Virus record (IMG/VR): IMGVR_UViG_3300036766_001793
Coordinates: 101,485-165,484 of that record
Strand: one strand, 5' to 3'
Origin: a virus
Length of the DNA stretch: 64,000 nucleotides
Shown: piece by piece, positions 49,336 through 58,142 of the stretch
Layout: each line of letters starts with the position of its first letter
How positions within the stretch are numbered: the stretch's first letter is position 1
Notes under the pieces: model-generated
Databases searched by the model: none
Seen by the model: only the letters and a program-made list of their open reading frames with translations
What the model was told of the DNA's origin: nothing
Made by a program: the position numbers and the translations under genes

Positions 49336-50343
49336 CTAGTTCACTGTGGGGCTATCCCCTGGGCGCAGGTCAGTATACCACGGGTTGGAGGCCTGTGTAA
49401 ATATGAGGGCGAGCTCCTCGGGGGTGCATTCCTGGACATCCTTGCGCCCCTCCGGCAGCTTTATCGACGTGACCTCCAGCTGGCCCAGCCGGATGGCCGC
49501 GTCGACTGAGGCTGCCGCCCCGGCCCTGTCGTTGTCGAAGGCGAGGGTGACCCTCCAGAACCTGCGGCGCAGGAGCTCCGCCTGCCTCTCAGACATGGAG
49601 GACCCGAGGATGGCGACCGCGGGGATCCCGTGCTGGTGGAGCCACATGCAGTCCATCGGCCCCTCGACGACGGCCACCTCGGTGGTCCCCGGCGGGACGT
49701 GGTCCAGGCCGAAGAGGAAGTCGCCCTTAGTGAGGCCGCGGGTGTTCAGGTACTTCGGCCCGCCAGGCCTCAGGCTGCGCCTGATCAGGCCGACGAGCTT
49801 CCCGCCCACCCTGACGGGGACGACCGCGCAGTGGTACTCCTGGTCGTAGCCGACCTCCCATGCCCTCAGCAGCTCGAGGTCGAATCCCCTGTTGACCATG
49901 TACTGCGGGACGCGGGTCCTGTCGTAGAGGAGCGGCTCCTGGGGCAGGACGTGGCGGACCTGGCCCTGGCCCCCTCTCCCTGCGAGCAGCCGGGCGAGGG
50001 TCTCCGGATCCCGCGGGATCGCCATCCTCAGACGGCGCCTCGCGTCGGCCAACGGCTCGCCGGTGACCCTGTGGACGAGCGCCGCCAGGTCCGGGCTGGA
50101 CCCGCACTCGGCCCGGCACTTCCAGGCCCCCTCCTGGACGAGGACCGTGAACGACGGGTCCCTCTCCTCGTGCATCGGGCAGAGGGCCCGCCTCCACCCG
50201 TCGTGGTCCCCGTCCACGAGCTCGACCCCGAGCTCTTCGAGAACCATGAGGACCACATCCTTGGGGTAGCTGGGGTACTCCTCCGCGCGCTGCTGCCTGG
50301 GCCTCCCGCGGCCGTCGTACCTGCTAGGCCTCGTGGTGCTCAC
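49336..50343 (-). CDS. dnaG: DNA primase (CHC2 Zn finger plus TOPRIM)
   Basis: CPMHEERDPSF...C...C, PKYLN, VVEGPMD, AFDNDRAG, KD. Confidence 0.93.
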   Translation of the reverse strand: MSTTRPSRYDGRGRPRQQRAEEYPSYPKDVVLMVLEELGVELVDGDHDGWRRALCPMHEERDPSFTVLVQEGAWKCRAECGSSPDLAALVHRVTGEPLADARRRLRMAIPRDPETLARLLAGRGGQGQVRHVLPQEPLLYDRTRVPQYMVNRGFDLELLRAWEVGYDQEYHCAVVPVRVGGKLVGLIRRSLRPGGPKYLNTRGLTKGDFLFGLDHVPPGTTEVAVVEGPMDCMWLHQHGIPAVAILGSSMSERQAELLRRRFWRVTLAFDNDRAGAAASVDAAIRLGQLEVTSIKLPEGRKDVQECTPEELALIFTQASNPWYTDLRPGDSPTVN

Positions 50344-50950
50344 GACACCCCTCGAGGTCGTGGGCGCGCCGCGTGGGGCCCTCGTCCCCTGGGTAGCCAT
50401 GGCCCCACCCGTCGAAGTCCGCCCTGGCTGTCCTCGAGAACAGCTCTAGCCTCGGGCCAGGGCTCATGGAGGCCACGGTGTCGTAAAAGGCCTGCGGCTT
50501 CGCCGAGTGCACCGTGCGGGGAGCGAAGACCACGTTTGGGACGTTCCGTCTGAGGACCGGGAGTCTGCCCCTCGTAGCGAAGATGCACTGCTCGGTGGCG
50601 TTCCGGTAATTCCTGCCCATGCCGATACGGACGCGCTTCATGTCGTTGGTCATCTTGACCCAGGTGATGATCTGCTTGTTGTCGGTCCTGAACCCCCACG
50701 CCCTGACCACTGAGTGGGCCTCCTCCACGAACCCGTTCGGGCACCAGAGGTAGAGGTGGGCGTCAGCGGCCGCGGCCGCGGAGACCTCCTCCCCCATGGC
50801 CAGGATCTCCCGGACGCTCATCGTCTCATAGTGCTTGGCGGCCCCGCGGCCAGGGCCTGGGAGCTTGTCCCCGAAGGACCAGGCCGGGTCCGCCACCACG
50901 GTGTGGTAGCCGCCCTCGACCGTCGGGATGGGGGTGCTTGTGGCCGTCAC
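50324..50950 (-). CDS. MT-A70 family amino-methyltransferase
   Basis: VADPAW, HYETM, LYLW, AWGF, W.K, GMG, HSAKP, LELF.R. Confidence 0.92.
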   Translation of the reverse strand: MTATSTPIPTVEGGYHTVVADPAWSFGDKLPGPGRGAAKHYETMSVREILAMGEEVSAAAAADAHLYLWCPNGFVEEAHSVVRAWGFRTDNKQIITWVKMTNDMKRVRIGMGRNYRNATEQCIFATRGRLPVLRRNVPNVVFAPRTVHSAKPQAFYDTVASMSPGPRLELFSRTARADFDGWGHGYPGDEGPTRRAHDLEGCREHHEA

Positions 50951-52233
50951 CTGAAGTCCACCATGCCGGTCTGCTCATCGGTGAACACCCCGAGCTCGCC
51001 TATGTCGCCGCCGTCCACGTCGAATCTGAGGTACTGCTTCGCCAGGAGCTTTGGCCCGCCGCGGTTCTTGATCAGCTTCCACACCTTCTGCATCGGGTCT
51101 CCCCGCTTGTCGGCGAGGGAGATGACCTTGTTGGCCGTCTCGACGAAGGCCAGCCCGTATGCGGACTGGCCGAGGTCGGCCACGTCCCCGTCCGCCATAA
51201 CGGCGTCCCTCGTCACCTGGGTGCCCCCGATGATCACGAGGTTCATGTACTGCCCAAGGCCCTTGAGGGCCTCCGCGGCCTGCTTCATGTTCTCCCAGGT
51301 CCGCCCAGTCCCGGAGATGAGGTGCACGCCGTCGATGGCCAGGATGTCTGGCCGGTGCTCCCGGGACTGCTGCAGGATGTCCGCGATGGAGAAGGCGCCG
51401 GAGTCGCCGGAGTCCCTGATAACAAACCCGCTCCTGCCGTTCTCCGCCAGCTCCTGGGCGTACCTTCGGTAGAGGTCCTGGTCCTCCAGGCCGTTCCTGA
51501 TCCGCTGGTTCGAGAACTCGTACCCCATGAACCTGGCGAGCATTGGGTCGAGGCGGTCCTCGACCTCCTCGATGGTGGACTCGGGGGTCAGGAACAGCAC
51601 CTTCGCGCCGTCGTAGTGGTAGGCGTATGCGCAGAACCAGAGGAGGAGGGCCGACTTGCCGACGTTCAGCGGGCCCTGGACGGCGATCGCCTCCCCCCGC
51701 CTCCAGTTGAGGCCGTCCCTGTCGAGGGCCGGGAGGCCGCTCCTGATGCCGATGACCCCGCCGGCCGCCTTGGTGGCGGCCCTCGCCTCCATCCGGTCCG
51801 CCCTCAGCACGGCGTCCGTGTCCGCGTAGCTCGTGTGGGAGGACACGCTCTTGGCAATCTCCGCCAGGTCGCCTATGAGGAGCTCCACGGCCTTCTGCGG
51901 GCTGTCCCCGTTCAGCTCGTCGAGCCTGGCGACTATCTTGGCCGTCGCCTCCCGGTTGACCGTTCGCCGGACGAGCTCCTCGAGGAACGTCTCCGTGTCT
52001 GAGACGCCTGGCATCAGCTCGAGCCCCACGACCCCGTAGACATCGTTCCTGGTGGCCGACTCCCCGGCCTTGGCCCTGGAGAGCAGGTAGTCCCATGCCC
52101 TGGCGTGCCCCTCGACCTGCCAGGACGTGTCCCTGATCCCGGCCGCGGAGGCCTTAAACACGGCCTCCGCGGTGTCCATCGCGGAGAGGACGAGGAGCTC
52201 CACCTCCTCAGGTTGGTGGTCCTTGAGAGCCAT
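50947..52233 (-). CDS. dnaB: DnaB-like replicative helicase
   Basis: GPLNVGKS, TPE, AIDG.HL, TQ, KNRGG. Confidence 0.9.
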   Translation of the reverse strand: MALKDHQPEEVELLVLSAMDTAEAVFKASAAGIRDTSWQVEGHARAWDYLLSRAKAGESATRNDVYGVVGLELMPGVSDTETFLEELVRRTVNREATAKIVARLDELNGDSPQKAVELLIGDLAEIAKSVSSHTSYADTDAVLRADRMEARAATKAAGGVIGIRSGLPALDRDGLNWRRGEAIAVQGPLNVGKSALLLWFCAYAYHYDGAKVLFLTPESTIEEVEDRLDPMLARFMGYEFSNQRIRNGLEDQDLYRRYAQELAENGRSGFVIRDSGDSGAFSIADILQQSREHRPDILAIDGVHLISGTGRTWENMKQAAEALKGLGQYMNLVIIGGTQVTRDAVMADGDVADLGQSAYGLAFVETANKVISLADKRGDPMQKVWKLIKNRGGPKLLAKQYLRFDVDGGDIGELGVFTDEQTGMVDFR

Positions 52234-52757
52234 CAGAAGGTAAGCTCCTCTATCTCGTCTTTCAGCCCTACCAGCTTGTCTAGCATCGCCCTGGCCCGGG
52301 CGGACCCGCCGCGGTCGTAGGCATCCTCGCAGTCAGCCCACAGGCCGAGCCAGTACTCCGCGCTCCGCCTCGCACGCCGGTCATCGCACTGGTCCGTCCA
52401 GAGGGCGTACCTCCAGGCCCCGTCGGGCACCTCGAGCCTCGACCGGACGACGTCGAACATCACCGGGCCTAGGTGCTTCATGGCCTCGAAGCCTGCCCCC
52501 GTGCTGCGTATCGCCTCGAGGCAGACCAGCTGCACCATGTCCGCGTCGCCGGCCTCCGCCAGGAGGTCCGACACCCGCTTGACCACCGCCGGGAAGAAGA
52601 ACAGCCTCCCGCGGTTGGCCCTCTTCCACGCGTCCAGCTCCCTCTTGGAGCGGTGCGCCCTCCCGTGGGAGTTCTCGAACGCCAGCGGCATGAACTCCTC
52701 GTAGAGGCTCTCGGCGATCTTGCTGGCCATCTCCGGGTGCTTGCGGGCAGCCGTCAC
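52233..52757 (-). CDS. Hypothetical protein
   Basis: Coupled to the helicase gene. Confidence 0.7.
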   Translation of the reverse strand: MTAARKHPEMASKIAESLYEEFMPLAFENSHGRAHRSKRELDAWKRANRGRLFFFPAVVKRVSDLLAEAGDADMVQLVCLEAIRSTGAGFEAMKHLGPVMFDVVRSRLEVPDGAWRYALWTDQCDDRRARRSAEYWLGLWADCEDAYDRGGSARARAMLDKLVGLKDEIEELTF

Positions 52758-52764
52758 CTTGCGT

Positions 52765-55398
52765 TCACCCCTCCGCCTCGTAGGCCGCCCACTCGTCCTT
52801 CAGGGTACCGGGCGCGGAGAAGCTCTCTAGCTCGAACTTGTGGGTCGGCTTGCCGTCCGCGCCCCGGTAGGCGAGCGGGCCCATCCTGCCCCAGTGGCTG
52901 CTGACCTTGCCCTCGGCCTTCATCCTGACGGGGATGTGGATGTTGAACGGAGCCAGGGCGGGCGGGCTCTCCATGACGGAGAGTATCCTGTGCGCCCACT
53001 TCGGCCACACGTCCTCCCTGACCTGGAACAGTAGGGCGTCGTGGATGTCCCCGACCTGGAGGATCTCCGCCTGGTCCAGCTCGCCCATGAGGCTCACGCT
53101 GCTCGCCAGCGTGAGGTCTCCGCCGAACCCCTGCACCGGGCTGTTCCCGGTGATGTACGTGGTCCCCCTCCGCTTCGCCACGAACGTGCCGTTCTTGACG
53201 GTGGGGCACCACACAGTGATGCCCTCGCCGGAGACCAGCCTCTTCTCCGGGACGTAGGCATACGGACGCCTGTTGAGGCGGACCAGCCAGTAAGAACCCC
53301 CTTTGGGGGCGTTCGTCATGCTTGGGTAGATCTTAGGAACATCGCGTCCCACCATCTCGGCCAGGCTCGGCGAGTACCCGCACATGACTGCCAGCATGGC
53401 GAACATCTCAGCGTCCCGCTTCTCCTTCGCGACGAATGTCTGCTTCCCCCCCTCTTCCCTGTGTCCGTCCCCGGCCATCATGGAGCCCAGAAGCACTTCT
53501 GGCTGCCCTGGCCCAAGCCCCCGGAGAAGCCGACCGGTCAAATGTCTCTCCCCCTTGAGAGCCTCGACGAGGGGCTTAGACGACTCCAGGTTAACTGTCC
53601 ACTGGACCAACCCGTCGACTGCGCGGGGCCCGCCACGGTGTGCGATTAGCTCGAGCCGTCCGATGAGGGCGTCGATCTCTGCCACCTTCTCAGGGTTGCC
53701 CCTCTGACTCTGCGATAGCACCAGCCTGTTCCCCTTGAGGAGATGTCCGTCGGTGAGCACCCACCCAAGGAAGGCCACCTGGTCGTCGGTCAGGGCGGGG
53801 AGCTGGCAATGCCCCTCGTACCTTCCTGTCCTGTGGACCTTGTGTTCGCCGGACGTGTTGAGGTCAAAGGTCTCCACCATCCGGTGGCTGAGTACGTTCC
53901 TCGTCCGCTTCGACCCCCCCCTCTGTCCGACGAGCCACCGGTGGCCCTCGGTGACCAAGGCGGAGAAGGACCGAGACTCCATCGACACGAGGCCCTCGTC
54001 CGCCTGGCCGACGTTGAGGCGCTCCACCGCCTGCCACTCGAGCGCGCCGGTGCCGGGATTCTTCGTCAGTATCTCGTCCCCGACTTCCATCTCATCCCAC
54101 CTGCGCCACCCTGACGCCGCCAGGCACTCGGTCTCGTCGTCGACGCAGTTGATGGCCTGTCGCTCCGCCTTCAGGACCGCTAGCCTGTCGGAGCTCAGGA
54201 TGTTCATGAGGTGCCTGGCCCGCCCGGTCGGGCTCGTGACCATCCGGTTCTTGGCGACCGCGCGGCGCTGCCTCTCGTGCCACGGGAGGAGCTTCGGGTA
54301 GGCCTCGAAGTAGGTGCGGCGGAAGGCCTCCCCCTGCTCCAGAGAGAACTCGACGCCGAACGTCTGCTTGGCGTAGATGACGAACCCCCTCGCGCTCATC
54401 CCGTAGAGGAACCCGAGCACGACCGCTTTGGCGTCCTGGCGCTCCTCCCCCGTGACCTCCCACTCCGGCTTGCCGTAGATGATGGCCGCGGTGTACCGGT
54501 AGACGTCCCTCGTCGGGTCGGCGAAGACCCTCAGGAGGGCGTCCTCCCCGGCGAACCAGGCGGCGATGCGGACCTCGGCGGCGGAGTAGTCGAACTCCAG
54601 CATCAGCCAGCCCGGCGGGGCCCCGAAGCACGACCTGGCCAGGTGGTTCCTCGGCACCTGCTGCAGGTTCGGCTTGTCGCACGAGCGGCGCCCGGTCACG
54701 GTCCCGGTGAGGTTGAAGTTGGGGTGGATCCTGGACCCAGGGTCGTACCAGGTTGGCCAGGCGTCGAAGAACTGGAGCATCTTGGTCGACTTCCTGAACT
54801 CCATGAGGAGGTCCACGGCGGGGTGCCTCAGCTCGCCCAGCGTGGCCTCGTCGACCTTCGGCTTGCCGGTCTTCTCGGTGAACGCCAGCGGCTTCAGCCC
54901 GAGGCCGGACGGGGCCGGCGTGTAGAGCCACCTCCTCAGGAAGTGCTCGTTCCCGAAGTCGGCCGTCTCCCTGAAGTCCTCGCTGACGTGAGCGGCCATC
55001 TCCTCCCTGAGCGACTCGAGCCTGGCCCTCATGTCCTCCTTGCGGTCCTCCACCCTCGCCTGGTCGACCCAGATGCCGTTCCTCTCCATGCGGCACGTGG
55101 CCTCGAGCCCCGGGAGCACCAGGAGCTTGAGCAGCTTGGCGAGGTCCTGGTCCGCCCTCAGCCTGTCGCGCTGGCGCTCGTAGAGGAGGTGGGTGTACGC
55201 GACGTCCGTGGCGCAGTAGGTCCCCATCCCGTCCTGCCCCCAGAGGGGGGAGGGCGGGTACGCCCCGTCCCCGAAGGACTGCCTGCCCTTGCCCCAGTCG
55301 TCGACGCCGAGCTCCATCACGCACGTGCTCAGCAGGCTCAGCGGGAGCTCCTCGTTGAGGAGGTGCGCTGCCGCCATGGTGTCGTAGCTTATGGCCAT
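52765..55398 (-). CDS. polA: Family A DNA polymerase, C-terminal part (second half of exonuclease plus polymerase), with an intein
   Basis: DTMAAAHLLNE, YCATD, TGRRS..PNLQQ, DYSAAE, R..AK....G.LYG, N/SPVQG, IHDA. Confidence 0.95.
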   Translation of the reverse strand: MAISYDTMAAAHLLNEELPLSLLSTCVMELGVDDWGKGRQSFGDGAYPPSPLWGQDGMGTYCATDVAYTHLLYERQRDRLRADQDLAKLLKLLVLPGLEATCRMERNGIWVDQARVEDRKEDMRARLESLREEMAAHVSEDFRETADFGNEHFLRRWLYTPAPSGLGLKPLAFTEKTGKPKVDEATLGELRHPAVDLLMEFRKSTKMLQFFDAWPTWYDPGSRIHPNFNLTGTVTGRRSCDKPNLQQVPRNHLARSCFGAPPGWLMLEFDYSAAEVRIAAWFAGEDALLRVFADPTRDVYRYTAAIIYGKPEWEVTGEERQDAKAVVLGFLYGMSARGFVIYAKQTFGVEFSLEQGEAFRRTYFEAYPKLLPWHERQRRAVAKNRMVTSPTGRARHLMNILSSDRLAVLKAERQAINCVDDETECLAASGWRRWDEMEVGDEILTKNPGTGALEWQAVERLNVGQADEGLVSMESRSFSALVTEGHRWLVGQRGGSKRTRNVLSHRMVETFDLNTSGEHKVHRTGRYEGHCQLPALTDDQVAFLGWVLTDGHLLKGNRLVLSQSQRGNPEKVAEIDALIGRLELIAHRGGPRAVDGLVQWTVNLESSKPLVEALKGERHLTGRLLRGLGPGQPEVLLGSMMAGDGHREEGGKQTFVAKEKRDAEMFAMLAVMCGYSPSLAEMVGRDVPKIYPSMTNAPKGGSYWLVRLNRRPYAYVPEKRLVSGEGITVWCPTVKNGTFVAKRRGTTYITGNSPVQGFGGDLTLASSVSLMGELDQAEILQVGDIHDALLFQVREDVWPKWAHRILSVMESPPALAPFNIHIPVRMKAEGKVSSHWGRMGPLAYRGADGKPTHKFELESFSAPGTLKDEWAAYEAEG
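53143..54147 (-). mobile_element. PolA intein (335 aa, LAGLIDADG-like, ends GN/S)
   Basis: CVDDETE...VTEGHRW...FLGWVLTDG...MAGDG...VWCPTV...ITGN/S. Confidence 0.92.
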
Positions 55399-55402
55399 CG
55401 CC

Positions 55403-55621
55403 TCACCCCAGCCCCTTCTGCCCCTCTTCGAGCTTCTCCAGCGCCACCGTCAGCTCGCCCAGCGCCCCGGCACAGTCCCCCTCGAGGAGCATCCCCTGGG
55501 CGGCCGCCGCCTGGGCGGCCAGCTCCCTGTAGAGGCCCAGCTCAAGGCCCGCGTTCCACGCCTCCAGGAGGGCGGCCTTCGCCTGGTCCGGCGGGCCGGG
55601 GGGCGCTCCGGCCGCCGTCAA
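55403..55621 (-). CDS. Small helical protein between the two polymerase parts
   Basis: TTG start overlaps the upstream TGA; Ala/Leu/Glu-rich. Confidence 0.6.
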   Translation of the reverse strand: MTAAGAPPGPPDQAKAALLEAWNAGLELGLYRELAAQAAAAQGMLLEGDCAGALGELTVALEKLEEGQKGLG

Positions 55622-56835
55622 GCGGGGCCCGCCTCGCCGGCGGCCGCGCGTCCCGCCTGGGCCTCGGCGAGCAGCTCCTCGAGCAGCTCCCTCCCTACCT
55701 TCCTGGCCAGCGCCACTCCGGCCCCGCGCTCCGGCTTGACCTGCCCGAGGGGCTTCGACCACAGGATCCCCGACCGGAGCTCCCTGGCCCACCTGGCTAT
55801 CGTGCCGTCGTCCGCCGAGCGGAGCCGCTCCCTCGCGTTCCTGATGTTCCTCATGTCGAACTTGACGTTGTGCCCGCTGGACCTCCCGGCCTCCACGAGG
55901 TCGGCGACGCCGAGCACGACCTCCCTGAGCTCCTCCGGCCTGTCGACGAACGGGCTGTCCGGGTGCTCGGCCGGCACGAGCCACACGACGATGGCGCCGT
56001 CCGCGTCCCGCCTGCCGGTGGACAGCGCGGCGCACCAGAGCTTCGCAAAGTCGGGCCTGAAGTCGATGAACCCTCGGGTCTCTAGGTCGAAGGTGAGGAT
56101 CCCATCGTGCGCCGCGACCTCGGCGGCCATCTCCCTGAAGGCCCCTATGTCCCGCACCTCGACGATGCTCACCCTCGGCTGGCCGTGGACCCCGAGCAGG
56201 AGCTGCCTGAACTTGGACACGTCCTGCGCGAACGCCTGGTAGTAGGCAGGGTACCTGAGGACGTAGCCCGGGTGGACGGTCGGGACGACCCAAAGGCCGC
56301 GCTCCCCGTCCCACATCGAGCGGCCCCTGTGCCTCATGAGGCCGGCGGTCCTGGTGAAGAACCAGTAGGCGGACGCCCCCATGGCGAGGACGACCTGCGG
56401 CCTGACGGCCCTGATCTCCTCCTCGAGGTAGTCGGCGCACTCCGCCTGGGCCCGCTTGACCCAGAGCTCGTTCCTCGTCTCGCCGGAGCCCGCCGGGCAC
56501 TTGACCGCGTTCGTCACGTAGATGTCCTCGCGGTCCAGGTCGAACTCCCTCAGGACGAGGTCCAGGAGCTTGCCCTGCGTGCCGGTCGAGGTGATCGGCC
56601 GCAGCTTCCCTAGGTCCCTCGCGCTGGGGGCATCCCCGATGACCATCCCCCTGGCGGGGGCGGGCCCGTTCCCCCACTGGCACCTCTCGCCGGCCCCGGC
56701 GTTGTGCTGCAGCGGGCACCGCGCGCAGTCCGGCTCCCGGTGCCTCCGCGCCATGGCGGCGGCCTGCCTGGAGACGGGAGGGTCCTCCTCGCGGCTCGTC
56801 AGCCTCGTCCTCTGGTACGGGCGCGCCTCGGTCAT
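55618..56835 (-). CDS. Uracil-DNA glycosylase (family 4-like) fused to the N-terminal half of the 3'-5' exonuclease
   Basis: CARCPL, IGDAP, TNAVKC, HP; then FDLET (Exo I) and GHNVKFD (Exo II). Confidence 0.9.
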   Translation of the reverse strand: MTEARPYQRTRLTSREEDPPVSRQAAAMARRHREPDCARCPLQHNAGAGERCQWGNGPAPARGMVIGDAPSARDLGKLRPITSTGTQGKLLDLVLREFDLDREDIYVTNAVKCPAGSGETRNELWVKRAQAECADYLEEEIRAVRPQVVLAMGASAYWFFTRTAGLMRHRGRSMWDGERGLWVVPTVHPGYVLRYPAYYQAFAQDVSKFRQLLLGVHGQPRVSIVEVRDIGAFREMAAEVAAHDGILTFDLETRGFIDFRPDFAKLWCAALSTGRRDADGAIVVWLVPAEHPDSPFVDRPEELREVVLGVADLVEAGRSSGHNVKFDMRNIRNARERLRSADDGTIARWARELRSGILWSKPLGQVKPERGAGVALARKVGRELLEELLAEAQAGRAAAGEAGPA

Positions 56836-57266
56836 CCCCTGGTGGCCCTCCCCTGTCGGCCGAGGTCCGCGAGGGCGTCCGCCCTCTCGTTGCCGGGGTC
56901 GCCGGAGTGGCCCTTCACCCAGACGAGGCGCACGTCGTGCCTCCTGACCTGCTCGTGGAGCTCCACCCAGAGGTCGTGGTTCTTCTGGCCCTCCTCGCCG
57001 CGCTCTATGCGCCTGATGCCCCAGAGGTTCACGACGTAGCTAGAGTCGGCATGCACGACCACGCGGGACCTCTCCCCCACGGAGCGGAGCGCCATGATCA
57101 CGGCCGTGAGCTCCATCCTGTTGTTCGTCGTGTGGGGCTCGCCGCCGCAGATCTCCCTGAACAGCCCGCCGCCGTCCGTGATGAGGGCGCCCCAGCCGCC
57201 GGGGCCGGGGTTGGAGGGCGCGCAGCCCCCGTCGGTGTAGATGTGGATCTCGTGGAGGTCTCCCAT
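56832..57266 (-). CDS. rnhA: Ribonuclease HI
   Basis: YTDGG..NPGPGGWG, TTNNRMEL, DSSYV, WVKGH, GNERAD. Confidence 0.96.
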   Translation of the reverse strand: MGDLHEIHIYTDGGCAPSNPGPGGWGALITDGGGLFREICGGEPHTTNNRMELTAVIMALRSVGERSRVVVHADSSYVVNLWGIRRIERGEEGQKNHDLWVELHEQVRRHDVRLVWVKGHSGDPGNERADALADLGRQGRATRG

Positions 57267-57309
57267 GCCCTGATGGTACCGGGCCGGATCGCGCGCGATC
57301 CCGCATCCT

Positions 57310-57648
57310 TGCATGGGATCGAACGATCAGTGCCCTGAACCCCGGAGGTTCCGAGGGAGCAACCCCTACCCCTTGGACTCAAAATCCAATGGGAGGGGCA
57401 GCGCCCCGATTGCCACGTATGGCCCTCGGCGCTGCCTGGTCGGGTTCATTAAGGCGGTCCCGATGTTTCATCGCCGGGCGGGAGCTTGTCCCCGTCCGGC
57501 TAGGCCCTGCTTTTTGGGCCACCCCTCGCCTGCCAAAGTGTCTAGGCACGTATCTTACCGCGAATAAGGCTGCTGGCGCAGCGACACCAGGGAAAGGGGC
57601 CCAGCATGGCGCACCGGCTGACGTGCGAGCCCACAGGAGCTCTTTCCG
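57310..57648. ncRNA. Highly structured intergenic element (~340 nt)
   Basis: Many nested helices; no credible ORF; strand not determined. Confidence 0.55.
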
Positions 57649-57650
57649 CC

Positions 57651-58142
57651 CTATCCTCTGACGTCCGCCTTCTTGGGATCGAATGACGTCACGAGCGCGA
57701 TGGTGATTGGGTCGTTGGCCCCCTGGTCTTGCTCCTGGAGGGAGTCGAGGAGGGCGGCCTCCGTCACGCGCTCGTCCTCCACCGCCTGGAGCCACTCAGG
57801 AAGCCTCAGCTCCACCTTCACCACGGTCACGAGCTGGTGGAAGAGCTCCGGCCCAACGGCTGCCAGGAACGCCTCTGGGTCGATCTTCGGCGTGGCCTCC
57901 GGGCGGGTGATGCGCAGGGCCTTGCCTATCTCAGGGACATTCAGGTACTGGGATGCCCCCTTGGGGAACGGGAGGTCGTACGAGGAGGCTATCTCCCTGA
58001 TGCGGTCCTTCAGGACTTTCTCGTCGGCGGCCAGGCCGGCCTTGCTGAAGAGAACTCGGTCTAGTTCCACGGAAATTCTGAAGAGCTCCTTCTGGAGCTT
58101 GGGGCCGACGTTGCGGCGTGGCGGGGTTGCTGGCTGTGCCAT
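57651..58142 (-). CDS. Hypothetical protein
   Basis: AGGAG RBS. Confidence 0.75.
   Translation of the reverse strand: MAQPATPPRRNVGPKLQKELFRISVELDRVLFSKAGLAADEKVLKDRIREIASSYDLPFPKGASQYLNVPEIGKALRITRPEATPKIDPEAFLAAVGPELFHQLVTVVKVELRLPEWLQAVEDERVTEAALLDSLQEQDQGANDPITIALVTSFDPKKADVRG

Follow-up and report, generated by a model that had tools for sequence, protein, structure and literature searches.

A family A DNA polymerase of uncultured phages encoded by two genes and cut within its proofreading exonuclease domain

We analyzed the final 64 kb (hereafter, the window) of a 165-kb IMG/VR virus record with a GC content of about 68% and describe here a family A DNA polymerase that is encoded in two pieces, with the cut lying inside its 3'-5' exonuclease domain. 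The locus consists of three tightly packed open reading frames (ORFs), all on the minus strand (Table 1). ORF1 carries a UDG (uracil-DNA glycosylase) domain with the exonuclease motifs Exo I and Exo II, ORF2 carries Exo III and the polymerase, and an ORF of 72 amino acids (aa) is located between them. This layout, together with a shared frame of the two large ORFs that is interrupted by in-frame stops, had been put forward in an original prediction made from the sequence alone. Both points were borne out, the former by the ORF coordinates, domain matches, and alignments and the latter by two in-frame TGA codons between the halves, at positions 55618-55620 and 55450-55452. An ATGA overlap joins the start of ORF1 to the stop of the RNase H gene that lies upstream. 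The sole possible start of the 72-aa ORF is a TTG within cTTGAc, which overlaps the TGA of ORF1. The ATG of ORF2, the product of which has the N terminus MAISYDTMAAAHLLNE, sits 4 nt past the stop of the 72-aa ORF. Start and stop codons in the operon overlap (TTGA or ATGA) or sit a few bases apart, and the genes of the split polymerase are, as far as the sequence can tell, translationally coupled.

Table 1. Features of the split polymerase locus, with positions given in the window
Feature	Position	Strand	Description
ORF1	55618..56835	(-)	405 aa; N-terminal subunit with UDG, first half of the 3'-5' exonuclease domain, and tail
UDG domain	56191..56769	(-)	ORF1 residues 23-215; family-4 / UdgX-like; Pfam PF03167, E 1.1e-19
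First half of exonuclease fold	55816..56172	(-)	ORF1 residues 222-340; holds Exo I and Exo II
Exo I	56077-56091	(-)	FDLET, in ORF1
Exo II	55855-55875	(-)	GHNVKFD, in ORF1
ORF1 C-terminal tail	55621..55815	(-)	ORF1 residues 341-405 (65 residues); helix, basic linker, helix
72-aa ORF	55403..55621	(-)	Predicted helical hairpin, in the cut between ORF1 and ORF2
ORF2	52765..55398	(-)	877 aa; C-terminal subunit with second exonuclease half, family A polymerase, and intein
Second half of exonuclease fold	55069..55398	(-)	ORF2 residues about 1-110
Exo III	55204-55218	(-)	YCATD (Y61..D65), in ORF2
Intein	53143..54147	(-)	335 aa, ORF2 residues 418-752; in polymerase motif AERQAIN|SPVQG; LAGLIDADG-like motifs
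Flanking operon genes	49336-52757 and 56832-57314	(-)	Replication operon around the split polymerase

The match to PF03167 and a structural alignment both indicate that the N terminus of ORF1 adopts a family-4 UDG fold. As part of the read-through model described below, the domain aligned to the UDG of T. maritima (1vk2) with a Z score of 24.6 and a root-mean-square deviation (rmsd) of 2.2 over 183 residues. The domain also matched NCBIfam TIGR03914 and TIGR00758, both under the curated cut-offs. It retains the GDAPS and HPG motifs in the window, and the ORF1 N terminus is kept in the relative P0002 (80% identity). The motif-B histidine (within HPG; ORF1 residues about 186-190) is replaced by glutamine or serine in the relatives P0004 and P0008, and part of the clade may, judging from these substitutions, have lost UDG activity. 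The similarity of ORF1 to the phiLo polymerase (9qhs_A) extends across both the UDG domain and the first exonuclease half. The latter is predicted to form strands at residues 222-226, 247-252, 268-272, 282-287, and 319-321 and helices at residues 300-316 and 324-340. Its residues D250, E252, N323, F326, and D327 are invariant across 15 ORF1 homologues.

ORF2 opens on the FDTM strand that normally comes after Exo II and continues into a DNA_pol_A domain (Pfam PF00476, E 2.4e-58). Across 32 ORF2 homologues, Y61 and D65 of Exo III as well as the polymerase motifs A, B, and C are invariant. The two ORFs were aligned to the single-chain UDG-PolA polymerases of Streptomyces phage Zuko and of a Manatee Spring phage. 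Exo I-III and polymerase motifs A-C are all present and invariant, yet they are distributed over two chains; the halves are separated by the two in-frame TGA codons and by a gene that is read in a different frame. The Pfam exonuclease model PF01612 scores neither half. No other PolA, PolB, Pol III alpha, or DnaQ-like exonuclease was found in the 165-kb record, which is estimated to be 87% complete.

Single-chain UDG-PolA polymerases have been described in SPO1, in the SP-15/YerA41/phiLo group, and in N4-like cluster 17 phages (Czernecki 2023, PMC10201439; Missoury 2026, PMC13697223). The enzyme encoded in the window shares with them the domain order of family-4 UDG, 3'-5' exonuclease, and family A polymerase; in contrast to them, it is encoded by two genes, with the cut separating Exo II from Exo III. 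Among cultured phages, the best matches are only 27-38% identical, and blastn of the region against cultured phages gave no match.

To place the cut in the fold, a read-through chain was modelled that consisted of ORF1, 74 junk residues, and ORF2 residues 1-419, with the two TGA codons read as glycine and with an input alignment of 44 fused homologues. The model reached a pLDDT of 82.4 and a pTM of 0.80. ORF1 residues 1-340 and ORF2 were mostly above a pLDDT of 90, while the tail of ORF1 and the junk linker remained below 60. The first element of ORF2 is a β-strand (residues 3-6), which was likewise modelled with a pLDDT above 90, and the cut falls between the Exo II helix (residues 324-340) and this strand. 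Model residues 223-898 aligned to residues 329-847 of the single-chain Klenow fragment (1kfs_A) with a Z score of 24.4 and an rmsd of 4.1 over 486 residues. Because the modelled chain had been joined artificially and its alignment consisted of fused enzymes, the model shows compatibility with the canonical fold and is not independent evidence of binding.

Relatives of ORF1 were collected with a word-indexed search and those of ORF2 with a search using the part that precedes the intein, from which the best 120 clusters were taken. Of the latter, 35 (the window's own included), which are 43-85% identical, start with M-x-x-x-[FY]DTM at exactly the same position. The UDG/exonuclease proteins, 36-80% identical to ORF1, end 8-12 residues past the Exo II helix or carry a tail homologous to that of ORF1. 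Ten contigs were read across the cut (L014, L015, L016, L017, L018, L019, L020, L021, L023, and L027/L028). In all ten, the UDG/exonuclease half lies upstream of either a gap gene or the polymerase half, and the two halves sit within the same replication operon. The split, which the original prediction proposed to look for in relatives, is thus shared by them, with 35 clusters that start at the same residue. What lies between the halves differs among the contigs. The halves overlap directly (by ATGA or by 17 nt) and leave an empty gap in L017, L018, and L028. The gap of L015 contains a C5 cytosine DNA methyltransferase (L015:3087-3917; PF00145, E 2.9e-41), and the gaps of other relatives contain one to three small ORFs.

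When a tree was built from the polymerase part, every split form was placed in one well-supported clade of 46 clusters (SH-like support 99), which also includes 11 fused forms, while the sister group of 40 clusters consists entirely of fused single-chain enzymes. The linker that follows Exo II is 8-12 residues longer in the clade than in the sister group, and in the fused members of the clade it is as long as the corresponding end of ORF1 and beginning of ORF2 combined. Constraining the split forms to one group was rejected (delta lnL 242, p-AU 1e-46); at least three changes of the fused/split state are required on starred branches and six on the best tree. The tree alone gives no direction of change. 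We infer one old fission in a lengthened surface loop that was followed by several re-fusions. Re-fusion could be achieved by a one-base change in the ATGA overlap.

We consider it very probable that the replicative family A polymerase of this virus is an inherited two-gene enzyme, the halves of which dock non-covalently and form the proofreading site in trans. ORF1 and ORF2 would be translated separately from one translationally coupled operon. ORF1 would provide the UDG domain and, with Exo I and Exo II, the strands and helices that open the DnaQ-type exonuclease fold, while ORF2 would provide the next β-strand, Exo III, and the polymerase. The cut is placed in the loop that connects the Exo II helix to that strand and that is lengthened specifically in this clade. 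Non-covalent docking would then restore the same UDG-exonuclease-polymerase architecture as in the single-chain relatives. Because the cut divides the proofreading domain near its middle, its active site would have to be assembled in trans from the two chains. The original prediction had proposed a two- or three-subunit enzyme with its exonuclease site in trans; the two-chain, in-trans part of this proposal appears well supported by the 35 clusters, by the invariance of Exo I/II in ORF1 and of Exo III in ORF2, by the apparent coupling of the genes, and by the split enzyme being the only polymerase found in the record.

Several points weigh against this interpretation. The gene layout, its conservation, the invariance of the catalytic residues, and the compatibility with the fold are shown by the data, whereas physical association of the halves, exonuclease activity, and intein splicing are deduced from them. 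A linked chain modelled with an alignment of fused homologues would resemble single-chain polymerases almost by construction. As the record is estimated to be incomplete, a second polymerase could conceivably lie elsewhere in the genome. Last, the motif-B histidine is not kept clade-wide, which leaves the role of the UDG domain uncertain.

We also weighed whether the halves might no longer cooperate, with ORF1 being a free-standing UDG that carries a dead half-domain and ORF2 a proofreading-deficient polymerase. PolA enzymes without active proofreading exist, and the failure of PF01612 to score either half would be in line with such a state. However, the exonuclease catalytic residues are invariant on both chains in 15 and 32 diverged homologues, whereas a decaying half-domain would lose them. 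Moreover, a half-fold would leave a hydrophobic sheet edge exposed, and fused and split forms interchange within the clade with no loss of linker residues. We therefore regard a loss of cooperation as improbable. Even less probable is the restoration of a single polypeptide by an intron, a translational bypass, or two programmed frameshifts across 55400-55830, although the halves share a frame and group I introns are known in SPO1-type phage polymerase genes. Rfam gave no match at E<=1 over 52000-58000, and there was no sign of a structured self-splicing RNA in the gap, which has a coding signature and encodes a conserved protein in another frame. When read in the frame of ORF1 and ORF2, the gap DNA shows a non-coding pattern (GC content at second and third codon positions, GC2 and GC3, of 0.93 and 0.85). 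Furthermore, whole unrelated genes (a C5 methylase and ORFs of 96-175 aa), or as many as three ORFs, occupy the gaps of some relatives, while in other relatives the halves overlap by ATGA with nothing in between. The empty Rfam search and these differing gap contents thus virtually rule out the RNA-level splicing or bypass event that the original prediction had offered as an alternative. An assembly or sequencing artefact, or a recent pseudogene, might be suspected in one metagenomic contig of high-GC DNA, which is prone to indel errors, and a local misassembly had indeed been named as the finding that would overturn the split. This is hardly credible, since the same architecture was found in more than 10 independent assemblies from JGI, ENA, and Logan, and two compensating indels would not produce a conserved, coupled small gene. 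The recurrence of the same cut with varied gap contents across independent contigs effectively rules out misassembly.

By its codon composition and conservation, the 72-aa ORF is a real gene. In its frame, the gap DNA has a GC content of 0.83, 0.51, and 0.94 at the three codon positions, similar to the flanking genes (GC3 0.95-0.98). Homologues of the small protein are found at the same place in six other assemblies (L016, L014, L019, L021, L023, and L027). Searches of Pfam, PHROGs, the PDB (by profile), and the ESM Atlas gave no usable match, and an exhaustive profile search returned only its own two clusters and low-complexity noise. The region of ORF1 that follows the exonuclease half had been described in the original prediction as about 75 unrelated residues; it is instead a tail of about 65 residues that is conserved among relatives. 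Its first helix follows the pattern xDxxxxxxWxxE[LM][RK][ST]xx[LV]W and is followed by the basic linker and the second helix. The tail is kept in the window, P0002, P0003, L014, L016, L019, L021, L023, and L027 and is absent from the tail-less relatives. Its GC3 is 0.92 and its pLDDT is low to middling. A search of the tail against the PDB found nothing, and a fold search with a model of ORF1 alone returned mostly UDG matches and gave no clue to how the tail packs. A MAFFT alignment hinted that the tail might be a decayed duplicate of the ORF2 N terminus; this was rejected, as hhalign assigned the relationship a probability of 0.1%.

The tail and the small ORF co-occur in 7/7 loci of one subclade (the window, L014, L016, L019, L021, L023, and L027), and both are absent from L015, L017, L018, L020, and L028. 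This raises the possibility of a three-subunit holoenzyme, in which the 72-aa hairpin binds the ORF1 tail and the resulting helical bundle clasps or regulates the junction of the halves. L020 falls inside the subclade yet lacks both elements, which points to their joint loss. In addition, the small ORF is always coupled in the operon, has the GC3 signature of a coding sequence, and is retained even where identity in the polymerase half has dropped to 58%. On the other hand, the co-occurrence may be mere shared inheritance with one gain and one loss, and it fits a functional pair and common descent equally well. Relatives with neither tail nor gap evidently function with two subunits, the few members of the small-ORF family resemble no known family, and the tail is modelled with low confidence. 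As clearly unrelated genes also occupy the cut, a passenger is the default reading of the small ORF. Thus, we view a third subunit as possible but rather doubtful. More speculative still is the idea that, in this one subclade, the split polymerase has acquired a dedicated third component: the tail would bind a co-inherited helical hairpin protein of about 60-73 aa, and the two together would gate or stabilize the docking of the proofreading half onto the polymerase half. If true, the pair would give the phage a replicase of switchable fidelity and would account for the long evolutionary persistence of the cut, as well as for its repeated re-fusion and re-opening.

The original prediction had noted that no split-intein ends are visible, which was correct, but it overlooked a conventional intein of 335 aa within ORF2. 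That the cut itself does not reflect intein halves is shown by ORF2 residues 3-6, which align with the FDTM strand of fused homologues, and by tail-less relatives, which have no extension. The intein in ORF2 starts with C418 and ends with ITGN752, which is followed by S753; glycine takes the place of the penultimate histidine. It is precisely absent from the close relatives L016 and L014. Thus, a first cysteine, a C-terminal asparagine, a serine at the +1 position, and precise absence from close homologues are all found. The same intein allele, 33-47% identical, is present in P0033, P0035, P0044, P0046, and P0053, being scattered over fused and split genes of the clade, and its GC3 in the window is 0.84 as compared to 0.95-0.98 in the host gene. 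The intein sequence gave no match in Pfam, NCBIfam, or PDB sequence searches, and the block-like motifs VTEGHRW, LGWVLTDGH, and MMAGDGH were read by eye only. ORF2 would have to splice out the intein for motif C to be connected with the remainder of the palm.

Natural family A polymerases that are encoded in separate genes have been reported previously. An exo|pol fission in S-SBP1-like T7-like cyanophages was the first split seen in PolAs (Czernecki 2023, PMC10201439), and LUZ24-like Pseudomonas phages encode gp25, annotated as an 'exonuclease subunit', together with gp34/gp36. As in the window, these enzymes are argued to reassemble, with no frameshift involved. In contrast to them, in which the cut separates the exonuclease from the polymerase domain, the cut described here lies between Exo II and Exo III. 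LUZ24 was considered as an instance of the same cut and rejected, since its gp25 carries Exo I-III complete and its cut comes after the whole exonuclease domain. Because the cut in the window is inside the exonuclease fold, the β-strand and Exo III must here come in trans. A split polymerase gene with a small ORF inserted is also known from OM43 phages (PMC10580990). Among T4-related genes in pieces, gp43A and gp43B of Aeromonas phages 25 and 44RR, which form a family B polymerase, co-purify in active form, and the mobE-split NrdA of phage Aeh1 is active as well (PMC2988022). These cases resemble ours in that an essential replication enzyme is made of two polypeptides, which in theirs reassemble and stay active, and in that the intervening DNA is a gene or a short untranslated spacer. 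Unlike these homing endonuclease insertions, the split described here affects another polymerase family, no endonuclease domain was found in the gaps, and the cut is an old one that extends across an entire clade. Fractured genes, which combine split inteins with a free-standing endonuclease (Dassa 2009, PMC2677866), likewise show a conserved gene divided between two adjacent ORFs, with a small ORF separating them, but the halves described here carry no intein pieces. A literature search, the coverage of which excluded most subscription journals, found no published UDG-PolA in which a cut separates Exo II from Exo III. Thus, split family A polymerases that are cut between domains are already published, while we found no description of one that is cut inside the exonuclease domain.

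Natural split polymerases reveal where a replicase tolerates cutting. Here, a single compact DnaQ-type exonuclease fold is divided, with its metal-binding residues on two proteins, and this state has been kept across a broad clade of uncultured phages. It provides a test case for the tolerance of intradomain fission as well as a design from nature for proofreading polymerases that are split or that assemble conditionally. For annotation, the 'PolA' proteins of about 540 aa and the 'UDG' proteins of about 340-400 aa of this clade are best taken as two halves of one enzyme.

The intergenic point created by the cut behaves as a permissive cargo site for passenger genes, and with a methylase and small ORFs as its cargo, it is a clear example of how a gene break becomes such a site. 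No homing-endonuclease domains were found in the scanned gap genes of relatives. The C5 methylase of tail-less relatives sits exactly in the cut and is coupled to the UDG/exonuclease half by an ATGA overlap; the P0007 contig has the same order, as read from its gene table only, with a C5 methylase arrangement like that of L015. Further unrelated ORFs of 72-175 aa that match no family occupy the cut of close relatives, at L016:1130-1420, L016:1636-1854, L019:2470-2892, L023:2176-2472, and L027:4249-4776. In L020, in which both the tail and the small ORF are absent, the gap measures 143 nt (L020:2858-3000) and is non-coding, with every frame interrupted by stops; a promoter or some other regulatory element may be located there. 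The operon around the split polymerase reads, on the minus strand, RNase H, ORF1, the small ORF, ORF2, a 174-aa gene of no assigned function, a DnaB-type helicase, an MT-A70 methyltransferase, and a Toprim primase, and the same order was found in L016, L019, and the P0028 contig. One of the two gap ORFs of L016, 96 aa in length, contains Cys/His pairs that suggest a zinc finger.

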